Shown here one piece after another: positions 2,394-18,681 of a stretch of DNA of 18,965 bases. The position numbers were made by a program, and so were the translations under genes. Each line of letters starts with the position of its first letter. Position 1 is the stretch's first letter. The DNA lies in NCBI GenBank assembly GCA_049424145.1, contig JBMSSC010000043.1, positions 1 to 18,965 of the forward strand, in the 5' to 3' direction. A model generated the notes under the pieces. That model made no database searches, was not told the DNA's origin, and saw only the letters and a program-made list of their open reading frames with translations. Source of the DNA: Bdellovibrionia bacterium (GTDB taxonomy: Bacteria > Bdellovibrionota > UBA1018).

Positions 2394-2447
2394 AAAGTAT
2401 AGAAAAAATTAAGGGTGGCAGTCCGTTTGAATCAGGGGGATAAGAAG

Positions 2448-4130
2448 ATGATCTCGAGAAAATTTTATCAATCGCTGGTGTTAGGAGGGCTAGTCCTTTT
2501 GAGTTCATTGGATCCAGCTTTAGCCAATGTGAGCTTAAAGAACGGAAACTTCTTCATCGGATATACGGATCTTTTTTATTCCAATGGTTTGCAGCCTAAG
2601 ATTGAGCGTGTTTATAACTCGAAAACCCCGTATCGTGGCGCTTTTGGTTGGGGATGGGGTAATGAGTATGAAGTCTATCTCTCCGTTTCAGCCGACGGGA
2701 GCGTTGTGGTTCATGAGTACGGAGGAGGAGCAGAAAATCGATTTCTTCCTCTCTCCATGAGTGAGGCGGAACTGGATCGAGCCGTGGATGAGATTGCCAA
2801 AGTGGCTCAAAGCACGGGCGTGGCAGGAACTGGAGATCAGGTCACTGCCTATCGTAAGAAGCTCAAAAACGATGCCACCTTTAGAAATGACGAGTGGGAG
2901 AAGTTCCGCGCTCAAGGGAAGCTGAAGGTCCGTGAAATCCCGGTGAACACGCAGCTGAAATCCAATCGTTTTAGCTATCAGTACATCACTAAGGTGAAAG
3001 ACGGCTACCTTCGATCCTTTGATTCCGGTAAGACTCAGCGCTTTGATTCCAATGGTCGGCTGATTCAAGTGTCCGACAAGAATGGAAATTTCATAAAGAT
3101 TGTCAACAAGCCTGGTTTTAAACAACTCGTTGACAACTTCAATCATAAGATCGTCCTGAACTACAACAATCGAGGCCTCATCACCGAAGTTCAGGGAATG
3201 AATCAGGCGTCTGCAAAATACACCTATAACAACTTAGATGAGCTCGTGAAGAGCGTGGATGTGGATGGTCATGCCTTCACCTATAAGTATGACTCTCAAG
3301 GAAGGCATAACCTTCTTGAGATTGGCTATTCAGATAATACCAAAATGACCGTGGCCTATTATCCCATGGCTCAATTGGAGAGTGTGAAGAGCGTCAAAGA
3401 CCGAGATGGAACGATCACTGAGTACGAGTATCCCAGTGATTCCTCCGACAAGGAGCGCTACACGGTTCAGTTTAAAGTGAAGGGCACGGATGGAAAAGTG
3501 ATCTCACAGGGTAAGTACGATTACTTTAACAAGCGCAAAGCCGATGGTGAGGAGTGGACTCAGCGGCTGAGAACAGAGATTGATCAAGAGGTGACGGATA
3601 CTGTCTATAATGCAGCTTGTGGTTTGCCCGATTCCATTGAACAGGGAGGAGAGAAGACCTCTTTTAAATATGACTTAAAGTGCCATGTGACTGAAAAGTC
3701 CTCGCCCAAGGAAGTCACTGAGCTGGCATACGACTCGGCAGTGGATAAGGTGTCTTACGTCAAGAAGACCTCGCGTGAGAACCCAAAGCGTGAGCTCTGG
3801 TCGAAGTTTGTCTATGACACGAAGGGAAATCTCGTGAGCGCGAAGAATTCGGAGGGAAAATCCTCCCGCCTCGTGTATGACTCCGAGGGTCGAATTCGGA
3901 CGATCGCAGATGAAGCAGGGCACCAGGTTTCCTTTAAGTACGACGAGAACTCCAAGCCGGTGGAGATCTCTGATCCAAAACTGGGTACCATCACGGTGAC
4001 CTACACCAACTCGGGAGAGATTAAAAAGGTCGATAGCACGGCAGGAAAAGAAGTGGCTGCTCGAGTGACCCAGGAGTTCCAAGAGCTTTTGGATATTATC
4101 CGTCCTGCAGGTGTGAGCTTATCTTTCTAA
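2448..4130 (+). CDS. Secreted YD/RHS-repeat protein (560 aa), Bd0109-like
   Basis: ATG 2448 follows the SD AGGGGGA. Signal peptide ends ...DPALA. N-terminus of the RHS-associated type (KNGNF...ERVYNS...FGWGW). Many YD/YN repeats (YDSQGR, YDTKGNL, YDSEGRI, YDENSK). No PxxxxDPxG cleavage motif or toxin domain. Confidence 0.88.
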   Translation: MISRKFYQSLVLGGLVLLSSLDPALANVSLKNGNFFIGYTDLFYSNGLQPKIERVYNSKTPYRGAFGWGWGNEYEVYLSVSADGSVVVHEYGGGAENRFLPLSMSEAELDRAVDEIAKVAQSTGVAGTGDQVTAYRKKLKNDATFRNDEWEKFRAQGKLKVREIPVNTQLKSNRFSYQYITKVKDGYLRSFDSGKTQRFDSNGRLIQVSDKNGNFIKIVNKPGFKQLVDNFNHKIVLNYNNRGLITEVQGMNQASAKYTYNNLDELVKSVDVDGHAFTYKYDSQGRHNLLEIGYSDNTKMTVAYYPMAQLESVKSVKDRDGTITEYEYPSDSSDKERYTVQFKVKGTDGKVISQGKYDYFNKRKADGEEWTQRLRTEIDQEVTDTVYNAACGLPDSIEQGGEKTSFKYDLKCHVTEKSSPKEVTELAYDSAVDKVSYVKKTSRENPKRELWSKFVYDTKGNLVSAKNSEGKSSRLVYDSEGRIRTIADEAGHQVSFKYDENSKPVEISDPKLGTITVTYTNSGEIKKVDSTAGKEVAARVTQEFQELLDIIRPAGVSLSF

Positions 4131-4495: not shown

Positions 4496-4522
4496 AGGAT
4501 GACTAGGATGACTAGGATGACT
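4496..4522. repeat. Perfect 9-bp tandem repeat (AGGATGACT)x3
   Basis: Copies at 4496, 4505 and 4514. Confidence 0.85.
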
Positions 4523-4546
4523 CTTGTGACAACACCCCGTGAGAAG

Positions 4547-4566
4547 GGCTGGCTCAGGCTGGCTCA
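4547..4566. repeat. 10-bp tandem duplication (GGCTGGCTCA)x2
   Basis: Copies at 4547 and 4557. Confidence 0.7.
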
Positions 4567-4630
4567 GTTAAAAAAGCCCGGTTTTTTTAGAAAGCGGACC
4601 CTTAATTTTTGGAAGGTCTTGGGGCCTTGG

Positions 4631-5248
4631 ATGCACCCGAACTTCAGGCGGAGTTTACCGTGGATCTCAGCTGGGGTGATTTTACTGCTGGGGCAGCCGA
4701 CTTGGGCAAGAACCCCTCCCGCAATGAAACGAGCGATCCAAGAAGTCAGTCGAGCCGTGGAAGCGCTGACGATTCAGGCACCTCGGGACCAGGAAGTCTG
4801 CTTCAGTCCTGACGAGCCCTGCGATCTGAAGTTGATCAAGTTCATTCAAAGTGCACAGAAGTCTTTGGATATCGCCATTTACGATATCAATCTGGATCAA
4901 TTGGTTCACCATGTGATTCTCAAGTCAAAGACCATCCCGGTCCGTGTGATTGCGGACCGCAGGCAATCCAAGGGCGATCATAGTCTGGTTCCACTTTTAA
5001 TTCGCTCGGGGGTGAACCTTCGGTTTGGTAAGCAGCGGGGAATTTTTCACAATAAATTTGCAATCGTGGATGGCCTGATGCTGGAGACAGGAAGCTTTAA
5101 CTACACCAATCACGCGGCCCGCGCCAATAGTGAGAATCAGATCTACTTGCGTCAGCCTGAAATTGTGAACAAGTACCAAGATTTTTTTGAGCGATCCTGG
5201 AATCGAGCCACGCCTGCGGCCTCTGTTTCCTCTCGCCCGTCCCCATGA
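4631..5248 (+). CDS. Single-HKD phospholipase D-family protein, Nuc-like endonuclease, probably exported
   Basis: HNKFAIVD followed by ETGSFNYT...NSEN, plus FSP and SLDIAIY motifs. ATG 4631 gives a signal-peptide-like N-terminus (MHPNFRRSLPWISAGVILLLGQPTWA). The frame is also open from 4499, so the start is uncertain. Confidence 0.85.
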   Translation: MHPNFRRSLPWISAGVILLLGQPTWARTPPAMKRAIQEVSRAVEALTIQAPRDQEVCFSPDEPCDLKLIKFIQSAQKSLDIAIYDINLDQLVHHVILKSKTIPVRVIADRRQSKGDHSLVPLLIRSGVNLRFGKQRGIFHNKFAIVDGLMLETGSFNYTNHAARANSENQIYLRQPEIVNKYQDFFERSWNRATPAASVSSRPSP

Positions 5249-11075: not shown

Positions 11076-11474
11076 ATGGATGGAAAAACGGCTCAGGAAG
11101 TGAAAGAAGCCCTGCTTGCTCGCTGGAAGCGAATTGCACGTAAATTTCCCGATCGCCTTCAGGAGTCGGCTTCAGAGGACTACAGTGGATCTCAAGCGGC
11201 TGAGATTATCGATATGGCTCAAGCTTTAGAGCAGATTGGTCGAGACGCCTCATTGCAAGAGGCCGAACGGCGGGAGTTGTTAGCCATTGAGCGGGCTTTG
11301 GCCAAGATGGCCACGGGGAGTTATGGGGTGTGTGAGGACTGTTTGGATGAAATTCCACTTAAGCGCCTTTTGGCTTTACCGGAGGCCAGGCTTTGTGCTC
11401 AGTGCCAGGCCTTTGAAGAAAAGCAAAACACCCGGAGCCGTTGGTCTGGAAATTGGATTCGAGGATCAGCATGA
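11076..11474 (+). CDS. TraR/DksA family C4 zinc-finger transcription factor
   Basis: SD AAGGAGG at 11061-11067; coiled coil with EIIDMA tip; ALAKMATGSYGVCEDC-x17-CAQC zinc finger. Confidence 0.92.
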   Translation: MDGKTAQEVKEALLARWKRIARKFPDRLQESASEDYSGSQAAEIIDMAQALEQIGRDASLQEAERRELLAIERALAKMATGSYGVCEDCLDEIPLKRLLALPEARLCAQCQAFEEKQNTRSRWSGNWIRGSA

Positions 11475-11547
11475 ATGAAGCTGCTGAGGCGCAATCGAAA
11501 TCCCGTGTAGCGAGCGAAGAGGGGATGAGGCAGGGATGATCTAGCTT

Positions 11548-11563
11548 AGGCCTAGAATTTGCT
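11548..11563 (+). promoter_or_regulatory. Candidate sigma54 promoter for the 62-aa ORF
   Basis: AGGCCT-AGAAT-TTGCT (GG 11549-50, GC 11561-62). Predicted +1 about 11574, directly before AGGAG 11575-79. Confidence 0.55.
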
Positions 11564-11591
11564 TAAGTCTTCTTAGGAGTGAATCAGTGCC

Positions 11592-11780
11592 ATGGCTTTT
11601 GCTAATTCCTGGAGACGGGTAGGTCATTTTCTTTTTCTTGTACTGACTGCTTTAGGTTGGATTGTTCCTTGGACTGTTCCTCATGCCTTTGAAAAAGAAT
11701 CGATGGAGTTCAAGAATTCGTTGCGGCAGCCGGTTATCGCTTTCCAGTGGGTAACGCAGGACCAACCTTTTTCGGATTAG
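11592..11780 (+). CDS. Putative small single-pass membrane protein (62 aa), unknown function
   Basis: AGGAG upstream (spacer 12 nt, rather long); basic WRR followed by hydrophobic FLFLVLTALGWIVPW; promoter motif upstream. Confidence 0.45.
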   Translation: MAFANSWRRVGHFLFLVLTALGWIVPWTVPHAFEKESMEFKNSLRQPVIAFQWVTQDQPFSD

Positions 11781-12012
11781 TTCTCTTTTCTAAGGTGAAG
11801 GATGAGAGCTCGCCTGATTCCCTAAACTGTTGGAGATGAAGCGAGTTGAGGGATTGCAAGATGCATCGTTCAAATAGCAAGTGTGGATCGAGATTGCACT
11901 CGCTTCGCTGCACGTTCTGGGTTCTTGAGGTCGTTTCGATTCGTCTGGGAAAAGCCTCCAGTAGGCTTGGGTTGGCTGCTTTTTTGGGGAGTCCAATTCA
12001 GGATTCAGATTT

Positions 12013-12028
12013 TGGCATCTGAATTGCT
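12013..12028 (+). promoter_or_regulatory. Sigma54 (-24/-12) promoter, near consensus
   Basis: TGGCAT-CTGAA-TTGCT versus consensus TGGCAC-N5-TTGCW; GG 12014-15, GC 12026-27; predicted +1 about 12039. Confidence 0.7.
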
Positions 12029-12038
12029 TTGAGGCGGG

Positions 12039-12318
12039 AGACTCATTTGAGTTTCGGGTTGAGAAGGTTGAGTCCGAACTTTTGTTCAGGAATCAGGCAC
12101 GCGATGAGGAACCAAGATGAAGGATGAAAGTTGAGGTACGAGGTGAGGCAATCAGGCTCGTATTTGGTTCTAACGGTCATCAATAGTCTAGGTAATGGGG
12201 ATATGAAATTTCTGCGCCCATCAAAGAGAAGGCGTTCGTCAGATCCATCAAGCGGAGGAACTCGTTTGATCTGAATGGAGAGAGTGATTGGGTGAGCGAA
12301 CCGAAAGGTTCTTTTTTT
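12039..12318 (+). ncRNA. Putative sigma54-dependent small RNA (~280 nt); no family recognised
   Basis: Bounded by the sigma54 motif and a terminator. Hairpins at 12038-12055, 12076-12087, 12214-12235 and 12239-12274. The ATG-initiated + strand ORFs I found are at most 23 codons. Confidence 0.4.
12298..12318 (+). terminator. Intrinsic terminator
   Basis: GAACC-GAAA-GGTTC followed by T7; the stem is short (5 bp) with a GNRA loop. Confidence 0.55.
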
Positions 12319-12443
12319 GAATGATTTGAAGAGAATGAGTTGAAGTGACTGCGATTTGACTGAGAAGTAGTAAAAGAGAAGTAAATGATATGAAGAGAAG
12401 AGTTAAAAAAATAGACGATAAAAAATAAAATTTCCGAATCAAG

Positions 12444-12470
12444 AAAAAACAGAAGAGTTCATCTTCTGTT
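12444..12470 (-). terminator. Hairpin that may terminate minus-strand transcription
   Basis: AACAGAAGA (12448-56) / TCTTCTGTT (12462-70), perfect 9-bp stem with 5-nt loop; the adjacent + strand A-run gives a U-tail on the minus strand. Confidence 0.4.
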
Positions 12471-13049
12471 CTGAATTAAAGAGGTCATCAGGTTGAGAGT
12501 CAAAAGAGCTCTTGGTCTGATTTTTTTATTTTCTCAACCCCTGACTCTAAAGTTTAATTTTTAAAGATAAAAAAATCTAAAATCTCTGAATCTCTTCAGA
12601 TGGTTCGAGATTTTTGTGTTATCCCTAGTTTTGTTTTGAACATGCTGACATCTTGGGCTAGGCAAAAAAAAGAGTTTTTACGCTTTGATTCTTTTTCTAA
12701 AAAAATCGAATTCAAAAGCTTAGAGATTTTTTCTTCTCCGGTGGTTGAACAAACTTTCTGGATTTTGAGTTTTCCTTTCGTGCGTTTAAAAAATACTGAT
12801 TTTAGATTCAATCAGAAAGTTGGCTTTTTTGATTTACAACTTCACGAGTTGAATTTATTAGTCTGTTTTTTGGACTTAAGGTTGGGTTTTCGATGGTTCA
12901 CACGGAGGAGTCCTTGTTCTCAGCTTGGGTTAAAAGAGTGGGTTTCTAGTTTTTTATTTTCTGGGTTCAGAGGAGTCATTTTGGTCTTCTTTCAAAAGCA
13001 TTTCAATTCCAGTTGGTTCAAAAGGTTAAAAAAACAAGGCCTCCAGTTC

Positions 13050-14264
13050 ATGCAAGTGCTACGGCAGAAGGATCCAGGAAAGTCGAAACAGCCTGGGGTT
13101 CAAGGACTATTAAGAGATAAGCAAATTGCGGACCTGGTCTCCGATCTCCTATTGGATGGAATTGTCTTGCTGCGTTCGGATCGGATCGTTTATTTCAATC
13201 GCCGCGGAGCTCAGATTCTAGGACTCCCGCCCAGAGCTTTGCCTCAGGACCTGAGCCTCGCTTTGGTCGGGGAGCAATATTCTCAAGAAGCAGAGCAGGT
13301 GATTCGATCGGCTCTGTCCCATGGGACACCGATGAAGTTTGAGCTCAAAACCGAGCAAGGGAGTTTTTACTTTCTCGTTCACGCCTTTACCTTCAGAGAG
13401 GATCGCTACCCTCACCTCGTTTTGGATCGTCCTGAACTCGGTTCGTTCATGTCCGATGGGGATTCCGTCGCAGACGCTTTAGTTTTGGCTCAAGATATTA
13501 CTTTAGTTGAGGAGTCAAAAGCAGCTAAAGAGAAGTTTCTTGGGGATTTGTCTCATGAGATTAAGACCCCATTGACCAGTCTGACGCTAGCGACGCGATT
13601 ATTGAGAAGGAGCTTGGAATCTCAAAATCCTTCGGATCAGCTGCAGCTCATCGCGACCTGCATTGAAAGTGTGGATCGACTGAGAGTCCTAATTGATGAG
13701 CTTTTGACCACCTCGCGGTTTGATGGGTTGACCTATCACCCGTTGCTTCAGTGGGTCGACGCATTGAAGTTGGTGCAAAATGGGGTGCACTCATTTTTGA
13801 AAGAATTCCGTGCAAAAGGAGTTCTCTTGAGTTTTCAAGGGAGCTTTGAGGCCGGAGCAGTGCGCCCCCTTCAGGCTCAAGTGGATCCCTCTCAGCTGAC
13901 CTGGGTACTCTCCATTTTTTTGTCTCAGGCTTTAAGGGGATCAGAAAAAGGAGATTCGGTAAAAGTGGAGTGCAGGGGCTCCCCCCAATCGTTTTCGGTT
14001 CAGATTTCTACTCCTCCTTCGGTCATTGAATCCCTGAGTCAAGAGTTAGCTTTGGATTCAACGGGGTCCGCTGATCCTCTGAGGTGCCATTCGTTCGATT
14101 CTCGGGGCGTCGGGCTTTCGATTGCAAAGAAGATCATCGTGGCTCACGGGGGCTGTATTTCACTCACCCAACCAACTCAGCAGGGAGGGCTGATTTATTT
14201 TATCATTCCGATTCAAAGTGGAGGAGAGAGGATCAGGACTTCCAGTTTTGATGGGGCATCTTAG
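13050..14264 (+). CDS. Cytoplasmic PAS-HisKA-HATPase sensor protein (KinB-like) with degenerate ATP-binding boxes
   Basis: PAS-like LLLDGIVLLRSDRIVYFNRRGAQILG...QDIT; H-box LSHEIKTPLTS; G2-like GVGLSIAKKIIVAHGG. Start set at ATG 13050 because the 150 upstream codons lie in T-rich, intergenic-looking DNA. Confidence 0.82.
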   Translation: MQVLRQKDPGKSKQPGVQGLLRDKQIADLVSDLLLDGIVLLRSDRIVYFNRRGAQILGLPPRALPQDLSLALVGEQYSQEAEQVIRSALSHGTPMKFELKTEQGSFYFLVHAFTFREDRYPHLVLDRPELGSFMSDGDSVADALVLAQDITLVEESKAAKEKFLGDLSHEIKTPLTSLTLATRLLRRSLESQNPSDQLQLIATCIESVDRLRVLIDELLTTSRFDGLTYHPLLQWVDALKLVQNGVHSFLKEFRAKGVLLSFQGSFEAGAVRPLQAQVDPSQLTWVLSIFLSQALRGSEKGDSVKVECRGSPQSFSVQISTPPSVIESLSQELALDSTGSADPLRCHSFDSRGVGLSIAKKIIVAHGGCISLTQPTQQGGLIYFIIPIQSGGERIRTSSFDGAS

Positions 14265-14331: not shown

Positions 14332-15702
14332 TTGGCACGCATTTTAGTGGTCGATGATGAGAAAAGTATTTGCAGCATGATTGAGGCAACGTTAAAGAGT
14401 GCAGGCCATGGGGTGGAAACCTCAGATAGTGGGGAGTTGGCTCTGGCAATGATGCGTAAGACGCTCCCGGATCTTCTGATTACGGATTTAAGAATGGATG
14501 GGATGAGTGGCCTGGAGCTTTTAGGAAAGGTTCGAGAGTACTTTCCCACGGTTACGGTGGTGCTGATGACCGCCTATGGCACGATCGATACGGCCGTGGC
14601 TGCTATGCGCAATGGTGCCTATGATTATTTACTGAAACCCTTTACCCCGGAGCAACTTGAGCACTGGGTGGAGAAGATTGAGGAGTTTCGCAGGCTTCGG
14701 GATGAGAACACCCGGCTTAAGGATCAGGTCGATGCCCTCTCGGAGCCCTCCACGATTGTGACGGCCAATCCGAAGATGCAAAAACTTCTGGATACTTCCA
14801 AGAAAGTGGCGGTCACGGATTCTACAATTCTCATTACGGGTGAAAGTGGGACCGGAAAAACACTGCTGGCCAAACTCATTCACGATGGGAGTGCACGAAG
14901 CAAAGGTCCTTTTGCCGTGGTCAACTGCGCAACGCTTTCGGAAAATTTATTAGAAAGTGAGTTGTTTGGCCATGTTCGAGGAGCCTTCACAGGCGCAGTC
15001 AAAGACAAAATGGGGCGACTCCAAGTGGCCGATGGGGGAACGGTGTTCTTGGATGAAATTGGAGAGATTTCCCCAAGTCTTCAGACGAAGCTCTTGCGGT
15101 TCCTCCAGGAGCGCGAGTTTGAACGAGTGGGCGACACGAAAACGATTCGAGTGGATGTAAGAATCATTGCTGCCACCAACAAGGACTTGGATCGCGAAGT
15201 CAAAGCCGCCCGTTTCCGGGAGGATCTGTATTTTCGGCTCAATGTTATTGAGCTTCATATGCCAACTCTGAGACAGAGGCCTGAGGATTTGCTCACCCTG
15301 GCTGAGCAGCTGTTGATGCGATCGTTTCTCTCTACGGGTAGAAAGCCCAGACCTCTGGATGAAGGAGCGAAGAAGGCGATTTTAAGCTATGGATGGCCTG
15401 GCAATATTCGGGAGCTGAAGAATGCTCTGGAAAGAGCAGCCATTCTTTGCGCCGGAGATCAGGTGACCGTTGAGGATCTCCCGGATCGCATTTTGGAGTC
15501 CATTCATCTTTCCCAGTTGGGCACGCAGGCTCTTCCACCTTTAGCCGCCTTAACCCCCTCCGATGTGAGTTTAGAGGACCTTGAAAAACAGCACATTAGG
15601 CAGGTTCTGGCCACAGCCTCCACATTGGAGGAAGCAGCCAGTATTTTAGGGATTAATTTGAGTACGCTTTGGAGAAAGCGAAGGCGTTACGGATTGGACT
15701 AA
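14332..15702 (+). CDS. Sigma54-dependent response regulator (REC-AAA+-Fis HTH; NtrC/AtoC family, AlgB-like C-terminus)
   Basis: ILVVDDE, LITDLRM phospho-site, GESGTGKT, ESELFGH, GAFTGA, FLDEIGE, RFREDLYFRLNV, WPGNIRELKN, AASILGINLSTLWRK. TTG start with AAGGGG SD. Confidence 0.96.
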   Translation: MARILVVDDEKSICSMIEATLKSAGHGVETSDSGELALAMMRKTLPDLLITDLRMDGMSGLELLGKVREYFPTVTVVLMTAYGTIDTAVAAMRNGAYDYLLKPFTPEQLEHWVEKIEEFRRLRDENTRLKDQVDALSEPSTIVTANPKMQKLLDTSKKVAVTDSTILITGESGTGKTLLAKLIHDGSARSKGPFAVVNCATLSENLLESELFGHVRGAFTGAVKDKMGRLQVADGGTVFLDEIGEISPSLQTKLLRFLQEREFERVGDTKTIRVDVRIIAATNKDLDREVKAARFREDLYFRLNVIELHMPTLRQRPEDLLTLAEQLLMRSFLSTGRKPRPLDEGAKKAILSYGWPGNIRELKNALERAAILCAGDQVTVEDLPDRILESIHLSQLGTQALPPLAALTPSDVSLEDLEKQHIRQVLATASTLEEAASILGINLSTLWRKRRRYGLD

Positions 15703-15843: not shown

Positions 15844-16401
15844 TTAAGATCCCCAGCCGTGAGGGCAATCCTCTTGGTCCGCCAATTCAATGACCTGGTG
15901 GATGGCGGTGAGAAGCTGACTGGCTGTTTGGGAATTCGATAGGATTCCACAGATCTCCGCTCCCCTGAGCTCAAAGAGGGTCATGGTTTTTCCGTCCTTG
16001 AGTTTCAGCTGAACACTCCCGTCTAAATAGCGGGGCGTTTCAGGGACGGGAAAACAGAGTCCCTCTTGAAGGTGCGACGCAGTGGCTGCAGCATTCGCGC
16101 CTAAGGCGAGAGGGTTCCAGGTGTTCAGTGCGATGGCGCCATAGGCCTCTCTGCCACAGGCATTTCGAGAGGTTGCAAAGTGCGCGGCGGGAGAGACGCG
16201 AGTTTTAGCCGAGTTCGCAAGAATCACCATTTCGTCCCAACCTGAAGCGTAAGTAAGAGGAGGGGAGCTCGGTGTGACCGCAGGGAGGGGTTCTGAGGGC
16301 TGTGCCGTTTGAGGAGAGTCTTCAATCTTGGGGTCCCGGATGGTGAGAAAACAACCTGAAGTAAAGAGGGTGAATGCAAGCGCAATCCAAACGTTGAACA
16401 T
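15844..16401 (-). CDS. Hypothetical lipoprotein (185 aa)
   Basis: AAGGTGG SD before ATG 16401; MFNVWIALAFTLFTSGC lipoprotein-type signal; Pro/Ser-rich tether after the Cys. Confidence 0.75.
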   Translation of the reverse strand: MFNVWIALAFTLFTSGCFLTIRDPKIEDSPQTAQPSEPLPAVTPSSPPLTYASGWDEMVILANSAKTRVSPAAHFATSRNACGREAYGAIALNTWNPLALGANAAATASHLQEGLCFPVPETPRYLDGSVQLKLKDGKTMTLFELRGAEICGILSNSQTASQLLTAIHQVIELADQEDCPHGWGS

Positions 16402-18617: not shown

Positions 18618-18625
18618 GCTTTCCC

Positions 18626-18664
18626 TCATCCTAGGCAAAACGCATGGCATTTTGCCTAGGATGA
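18626..18664. terminator. Perfect 15-bp hairpin between convergent genes (probable bidirectional terminator)
   Basis: TCATCCTAGGCAAAA-CGCATGGCA-TTTTGCCTAGGATGA. Confidence 0.7.
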
Positions 18665-18681
18665 ATGAGTGGGTCAGTGGA

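Follow-up and report, generated by a model that had tools for sequence, protein, structure and literature searches.

We consider it somewhat probable (about 0.55) that the sigma54 promoter at 12013-12028 is the own promoter of a kinase/regulator operon, and that it is followed by a lineage-specific, partly terminating leader in front of a histidine kinase without ATP-binding motifs. The DNA analysed here (hereafter the window, 18,965 nucleotides) is contig C43 of genome G000, which is 2.69 Mb in size, 95% complete and the sole member of its genus. The source organism is an uncultured member of Bdellovibrionota. A previous sequence-only reading proposed that the region encodes an unannotated sRNA of about 280 nt, analogous to several known sigma54-dependent sRNAs. 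One part of this proposal has good support, namely a sigma54-dependent transcript predicted to start near 12038-12039 ahead of the kinase/NtrC-type pair, in a layout resembling that of glmY. The other part, a discrete functional sRNA, is not supported: the corresponding promoter in relatives is predicted to drive the operon mRNA, the stretch has neither a homologue nor an Rfam match, and its structure is at the background level.

According to the preferred reading, an activated sigma54 activator would bind a conserved box at 11855-11879. This activator would probably be the adjacent NtrC-type regulator, in which case the operon would be under positive autoregulation. The activator would open the promoter, and transcription would start near 12038-12039. 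The spacer between the start and the kinase appears to be lineage-specific: it would be about 560 nt long, compared with at most 150 nt to a coding sequence in relatives. Transcription may in part end at a weak terminator-like hairpin, T1 (about 280 nt), or at a stronger one, T2 (about 490 nt); any transcripts left over may read through into the kinase and regulator genes. A prematurely ended leader would lower the output of the feedback loop, with no conserved trans-acting sRNA involved. If transcripts partly end at 12318 and 12527, the 280-nt RNA would be a terminated leader rather than a conserved sRNA. Computation establishes the motifs, the synteny, the short leaders of relatives and the loss of kinase motifs, whereas transcription, the identity of the activator, termination and read-through are inferences. 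An opposing point is that T1 and T2 together could stop most transcripts; in this case the promoter would no longer serve the operon, and the short RNA would be its main product.

The result is modest. A sigma54 promoter with a putative enhancer is mapped across an uncultured family of Bdellovibrionota. One lineage of this family has a lengthened leader and a kinase deprived of its ATP motifs, with the regulator about 80% identical. The enhancer motif is a testable binding site predicted for the adjacent regulator. If a discrete RNA were demonstrated, the locus would illustrate how an operon leader can give rise to an sRNA and would bear on the origin of GlmY-like and Pxr-like genes.

Table 1. 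Features of the locus in window coordinates, with the basis of each assignment (SD, Shine-Dalgarno-like pairing)
Feature	Position	Strand	Basis and remarks
dksA/traR-type zinc-finger gene, conserved upstream neighbour	11076-11474	+	PF01258; synteny
Weaker sigma54-like site ahead of the 62-aa gene	11548-11563	+	9/11 positions
Gene of a small hydrophobic protein (62 aa)	11592-11780	+	SD -8.1; tblastn
Enhancer-like box TGCA-N3-TGCA-N10-TGCA, 1 mismatch	11855-11879		Conserved in syntenic loci
Further copy of the box, degenerate (2 mismatches)	11888-11912		4/8 variant-contig changes inside
Sigma54 -24/-12 promoter (probable)	12013-12028	+	11/11; genome enrichment; rpoN; counterparts in relatives
Putative 280-nt transcript, or initial portion of the leader	12038-12318	+	Predicted folds; hairpins 12038-12055, 12068-12096, 12108-12171, 12247-12270
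20-codon ORF (MKVEV...)	12124-12186	+	Codon score -0.088 (typical gap ORF); SD -3.3
43-codon GTG ORF including MKFLR	12143-12274	+	SD -7.0; probably no gene
Weak terminator-like hairpin T1	12298-12318	+	Fold; 5 bp, GAAA loop, T7, -6.9 kcal/mol; at about +275-280
Terminator-like hairpin	12446-12472	-	Fold; -11.7 kcal/mol
Stronger terminator-like hairpin T2	12487-12527	+	Fold; 14 bp with G-U pairs, T7, -12.3 kcal/mol; at about +485-490
Histidine kinase gene	12600-14264	+	HisKA, weak HATPase_c; start uncertain (ATG 12600, TTG 12981 or ATG 13050)
NtrC-family response regulator gene	14332-15702	+	Domain matches: receiver, sigma54 activator, HTH_8

The promoter and the enhancer-like box

Sigma54 sites were scored with the model YGGYAY-N5-TTGCD, a consensus that we take from general knowledge. 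The near-consensus promoter reported from the sequence alone (TGGCATCTGAATTGCT) is present and agrees with the model at all 11 positions, with correctly spaced -24 GG and -12 GC elements. Among the 32 sites with the score 11/11 in the whole genome, 18 fall into gaps, which make up 9.4% of bases; gaps are regions without an ATG ORF of at least 100 codons according to our own mask, so small genes count as gap. The genome encodes rpoN and contains 19 matches to the activator domain PF00158, 13 of them with E <1e-55. The element is probably a real sigma54 promoter, with the predicted +1 at 12038-12039. Among the motifs of the sequence-only reading, the promoter alone exceeds chance.

The box upstream of this promoter was overlooked by that reading. 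It is a putative binding site of a sigma54 activator. When one mismatch is allowed, 18 of 39 syntenic loci contain the box and none of 117 shuffles does; the motif was set by eye from the same loci, which makes the former count partly circular. There are ten matches at this threshold in the own genome. In relatives, sigma54 sites located downstream of the regulator gene are preceded by the box (at most one mismatch) in only 2 of 23 cases, and thus it does not mark that regulon in general.

Two traits distinguish the promoter from its counterparts. The box lies 158 nt from the promoter, whereas the distance is 86-89 nt in 18 of the 21 relatives that have a box with at most two mismatches, and 100, 107 and 111 nt in the remaining three. 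The promoter letters are TGGCAT..TTGCT here and CGGTAT..TTGCG in most relatives, and thus the promoter may be newly gained. An ancestral promoter at the usual spacing of 88 nt was also considered and rejected: there is no GG-N10-GC site between 11850 and 12013. No IHF site with at most two mismatches to the consensus, which we take from general knowledge, was found between the box and the promoter.

Contigs of an independent DNA run (X2) repeat 11486-12230 without a differing letter and 12214-12379 with one, so the locus is not an assembly artefact. Run X1, a possible source of this DNA, was set aside in the comparison. Among the sequencing runs listed as containing this DNA none was of RNA, which has no bearing on expression. 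Contigs of diverged strains, which in run X3 are about 80-96% identical to the flanks, cover parts of the locus other than 12037-12310. In one variant contig the promoter and the box are unchanged over 11830-12036; this sparing is compatible with selection and could be due to chance, given 8 changes in 207 nt. Half of these changes (4/8) hit the second copy of the box, which is thus probably not under selection.

Two other sites of the same genome deserve mention. At C37:9643-9783 (+), between convergent genes, a copy of the box (one mismatch) is separated by 125 nt from a sigma54 site scoring 10/11, and no ORF other than one of 69 codons follows downstream. Another 11/11 site, C51:12328 (-), is followed by a structured stretch of 110 nt and a T run, after which no clear gene is seen for about 500 nt. 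It is a candidate for a second sRNA or a long leader and has no sequence kinship to 12038-12318; the gene before it is presumably typA/bipA-like. Long spacers also occur elsewhere in this genome: 32 of 607 gaps are at least 1000 nt long, and the C51:12328 site is about 500 nt away from its gene.

The operon in the family

For comparison, 40 regions of the family were fetched via the best kinase matches, and a broader set of 74 family genomes was used. One region (L064, whose contig begins within the kinase gene) was omitted, which leaves 39 GTDB loci. The gene order dksA, kinase, NtrC-type regulator is kept across the 40 fetched regions within the reach of their contigs, and the dksA/traR-type gene is present in 39 of the 74 genomes. 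A metagenome scan with the kinase as the query confirmed 0 of 528 stretches; a scan with DksA gave six loci at 56-66%, none of them near.

A sigma54 site precedes the kinase gene, or a helical-protein gene upstream of it, in 23 of 39 GTDB loci and in three of five metagenome loci. These sites have a score of 10 or 11 and were hand-picked as nearest to the operon. The box and the sigma54 site occupy the same slot in the window and in relatives; the element at 12013 is thus the positional counterpart of the operon promoter. In all 26 relatives an ORF of at least 130 aa begins within 150 nt of the predicted +1, and in 22 of them within 50 nt. Judged from these leaders, the relatives' promoter in this slot is the predicted start of the kinase/regulator mRNA in 26/26 cases. 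A terminator-like hairpin occurs in the leader of 2 of the 26 relatives, and the leader studied here, 562 nt from +1 to the kinase, has three.

The kinase itself has diverged. Its H box is intact; in the alignment (window 13902-14030) Gln replaces the Asn of the N box and TPP replaces the DxG of the G1 box. Relatives have the N-box Asn in 29 of 36 and the G1 Asp in 28 of 34 kinases, truncated rows excluded. The N-box Asn and the G1 DxG bind ATP and magnesium. Because of their loss, autophosphorylation has probably been lost too. The median identity of the kinase to relatives is 34%, compared with 45% among relatives, and the best non-self match in a protein search has 39% identity. Among the possible starts, TTG 12981 has the best SD (-8.5). 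The frame is open from 12558, i.e., for 141 codons before 12981 (0 of 3000 shuffles). The N-terminus has codon use like that of non-coding DNA, many non-synonymous differences between strains and no similarity to the sensor regions of relatives. In the variant contig X3, according to hand reading, the stop that bounds the kinase frame is changed, and the frame may run further upstream there.

A similar loss of ATP motifs is seen in L067, L069, L070, L072, L077 and L082, most of which have no good sigma54 site before the kinase; as far as these alignments can tell, kinases may possibly have decayed to pseudokinases repeatedly in the family.

The orthologues of the regulator in the family are 70-86% identical (about 80%). 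With each of the 25 NCBIfam models shown, GlrR and LuxO among them, its score stays under the cut-off; the best model is AtoC. Among relatives (L044-L082), 23 of 32 loci have a strong sigma54 site behind the regulator gene. In most cases this site leads to a gene of a secreted protein of 170-250 aa, which is likely the target operon of the two-component system. Seven queries for this gene gave no match in G000. Since the kinase has neither a sensor N-terminus like those of most relatives nor the ATP motifs, and the secreted-protein gene was not found, the locus looks to be under rewiring.

Additional genes were noticed around the promoter slot. In 11 loci (L044, L047, L054, L060, L066, L067, L069, L070, L072, L080, L085) a gene of a membrane-anchored helical protein of 180-350 aa lies between the promoter and the kinase. 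Its position recalls qseG/yfhG, and it was not found in G000. The 62-aa protein of the window has tblastn matches at the same slot in L078 (E 2e-11) and L060 (E 6e-4). It belongs to an unannotated hydrophobic family of 58-80 aa located after dksA, often behind a sigma54 site (the window, L078, L060, L053, L056, L046, L052), with the motif W-x-x-P-W/x-x-T/V-P-R/H and no NCBIfam match. A sigma54-driven protein of 60-90 aa with a hydrophobic tail resembling LALAALAVGLAAG follows dksA in L047, L060, L065, L080, L053, L052 and L090. Its G000 counterpart is on another contig (C6:16210, +), also behind a sigma54 site. We take this family to be DUF883/ElaB-like.

The 280-nt stretch and alternative explanations

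Several structural elements reported from the sequence alone are indeed present: a hairpin at the predicted +1 (7 bp with one G-U pair, -6.9 kcal/mol), a further stem at 12247-12270 with the loop GAGGAACT, and a GAAA-loop hairpin at 12298-12311 followed by T7 at 12312-12318. T2 was overlooked. As a whole, the folding, the GGA count and the terminator of 12038-12318 are at the background level. The folding of the 283-nt stretch has z -1.55, and 12 of 200 shuffles fold equally well. The best 120-nt window of the plus strand has z -2.25, and 14.5% of 275 random gap windows are below -2. By the same rule, 41 of 150 gap stretches of 300 nt drawn at random contain a terminator of the T1 type, and 19 of the 150 contain one with T6 or more.

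Searches for a related RNA gave the following. The Rfam search that the sequence-only reading had suggested yielded only matches far under the gathering score, both for the whole window (to E 5) and for 11780-12620 (to E 10). DNA searches with 11500-13000 in 40 relatives found only scattered matches of 21-35 nt, and with 12000-12330 in the 74 family genomes the best were again 21-35 nt (E 0.003 or weaker). With blastn and nhmmer, the 45 syntenic loci and the own genome gave no meaningful match and no paralogue; phages and plasmids gave no match either. G000 is alone in its genus, so non-conservation holds at the family distance only. The sRNAs described for Bdellovibrio bacteriovorus (see below) likewise had no outside homologues, which tempers this argument against a young sRNA. 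It had been argued that an sRNA would be refuted by a lack of conservation of the promoter and the terminator in relatives. The promoter is conserved; the RNA body and the terminator are not at the family level. As for 6S RNA, the RF00013 copy of G000 is at C4:40592-40761 and there is none in the window.

The strongest rival to the operon-leader reading is a trans-acting sRNA that would be young and confined to the genus. It would be about 280 nt long and GlmY-like, end at T1 and pair without Hfq or act as a protein decoy, with the kinase and regulator genes using another promoter. A real promoter, the +1 hairpin, four local stems and a plausible length up to the GAAA hairpin and its T7 fit such an RNA, as do a GC content of 47% versus 30-33% immediately downstream and a sigma70-like site at 12403-12431, the latter at chance frequency. 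In E. coli, glmY shares this layout and has its own terminator and a separate promoter for the kinase, according to PMC8745638 and PMC4152352. The background-level folding, the weak and commonplace T1, the lack of a homologue in the 74 family genomes and the syntenic loci and of an Rfam match, and the use of the promoter for mRNA predicted in 26/26 relatives speak against it. We regard this sRNA as unlikely; the two terminators, the altered box spacing and the altered promoter letters are the reasons why we keep it well above negligible. A bolder version, to which we give slightly less credence still, is that a newborn sigma54-dependent, Hfq-independent sRNA has taken over the enhancer and the promoter of the operon while the kinase decays to a pseudokinase. 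If true, the locus would be a snapshot of a GlmY-like layout arising from an operon leader.

Alternatively, the promoter could be a relic or barely used, and 12038-12600 would be drifting DNA, maybe a remnant of the kinase sensor or of the upstream helical gene. The kinase is degenerate, the stretch is purine-rich with a G skew of 0.36, like a coding strand, and one variant contig has three indels in 12355-12520. The idea of a decayed gene was rejected after profiles of 37 kinases, 25 N-termini, 16 first-helix motifs and 10 upstream helical proteins had found nothing in any frame. The one pairwise match (L045 versus 12475-12564, E 0.25, among 81 comparisons) was judged to be chance. Besides this absence of a homologous frame, the promoter still scores 11/11 and the box is intact in the variant contig too, a weak point since 8 changes in 207 nt could miss both. 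We hold the relic explanation to be quite improbable.

Still less probable, in our view, is an mRNA of a small protein. The sequence-only reading saw no long ORF and named two possible peptides, starting with MKVEV (12124) and MKFLR (12203). The latter frame reaches the upstream GTG 12143 behind an SD-like GAGGT, which gives 43 codons and a stop 24 nt before T1. This tidy arrangement of promoter, ORF and terminator is the best case for a small gene; four other sigma54 sites of G000 precede proteins of 85-100 aa, and relatives have sigma54-driven small genes in the intergenic slot. The codon score of the 43-codon ORF, at -0.225 bits per codon, argues otherwise, since the four small sigma54 genes of G000 range from -0.056 to +0.119. 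Of 1000 random gap stretches, 316 contain an ORF of this length, and no homologue was found in the 74 family genomes or in NCBIfam. The MKVEV ORF has no homologue in the fetched loci. From codon scores and homology, both are probably no genes.

A CsrA-sequestering RNA of the CsrB/RsmY kind, raised earlier as a speculative role in view of about eight GGA triplets, is very improbable: csrA is present and one GGA lies in a hairpin loop (12257), but only two of eight are mostly unpaired, unlike the many exposed GGA in short loops of CsrB, RsmY and RsmZ, and the gene immediately after csrA, which belongs to a flagellar cluster, is fliW. The number itself was about right (seven in 12038-12318, eight with 12037) and is at chance: mononucleotide shuffles have a mean of 7.25 (P=0.62), and 31% of 18,972 genome windows contain at least seven. 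According to PMC7366521, FliW and sRNA mimicry are mutually exclusive kinds of CsrA antagonism.

Three minor points concern the region between the stretch and the kinase. The opposed terminator-like hairpins in 12446-12527 mean that transcripts from the two strands would overlap at their 3' ends. Hand reading of the variant contig X3 (depth 3.6) gives an extra T in the T2 run, in the 12520-12556 region. A pairing of 12046-12065 with 12531-12550 (-22.1 kcal/mol) was taken as likely chance.

Comparison with known systems

On sequence and partners, the predicted transcript fails to qualify as a member of the GlmY, Pxr, Qrr or CsrB/Rsm families. The closest layout is that of glmY-glrK(qseE)-yfhG(qseG)-glrR(qseF) in Enterobacteriaceae. 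There, too, a sigma54 promoter with activator sites located over 100 bp upstream is followed by a non-coding stretch and then by the kinase and NtrC-type genes on the same strand (PMC8745638, PMC4152352). The operon of Proteus mirabilis is likewise transcribed from the glmY promoter (PMC8745638, PMC4152352), and this is the arrangement proposed here. The differences are several. GlmY and GlmZ have no match to E 5 in the window or to E 10 in 11780-12620, RapZ (PF03668) was not found in the 95% complete genome, and the regulator scores 342 against the GlrR cut-off of 763. GlmY is conserved across its family, whereas our stretch is absent from all relatives tested, and the box of glmY is TGTC-N10-GACA, compared with TGCA-N3-TGCA-N10-TGCA here.

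The Pxr RNA of Myxococcales likewise has a sigma54 promoter adjoining an NtrC-type regulator gene in a host without Hfq (PMC5568312); Hfq was not found in the 95% complete G000 genome. Pxr is 108 nt long, located downstream of nla19, conserved and built of stable stems (PMC5568312), in contrast to 280 nt upstream of the kinase, with no conservation and no Rfam match, here. In relatives, the Pxr-like position after the regulator is taken, in 23 of 32 loci, by a sigma54 site, behind which the secreted-protein gene mostly lies.

Qrr1 of Vibrionaceae shares the sigma54 promoter near an NtrC-type gene. It is divergent to luxO and depends on Hfq. Neither Hfq nor an Rfam match was found here, and our regulator reaches 360 with the LuxO model against a cut-off of 800.

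Autoregulated sigma54 operons such as NtrB/NtrC, AtoS/AtoC and KinB/AlgB have the same order of an enhancer and a -24/-12 promoter before a kinase/activator pair. They differ from the studied locus, where the leader is 560 nt long and contains terminator-like hairpins, and where the kinase has neither the N-box Asn nor the G1 DxG. We assume that the pair is AlgB/KinB-like; one kinase match of 26% is named KinB.

Within the same phylum, Bdellovibrio bacteriovorus has attack-phase sRNAs and merRNA, which are intergenic RNAs of 98-655 nt and, like the stretch studied here, have no homologues elsewhere (PMC3627812). They were demonstrated by RNA-seq, three have FliA promoters, and merRNA has a c-di-GMP riboswitch (PMC3627812). 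The Rfam search gave no riboswitch match in our stretch. A search of the literature, mainly of its open-access part, found no report of a sigma54-dependent sRNA in Bdellovibrionota.

Elsewhere in the window, long near-perfect hairpins at 15969-16075 and 18622-18673 give weak matches to miRNA models; the first lies within a minus-strand ORF. The regions 2415-4130 and 4499-5248, which directly follow ATPase and membrane genes that we take to be Tad-pilus-like, encode an RHS/YD-repeat protein (DUF6531) and a PLD-like protein.
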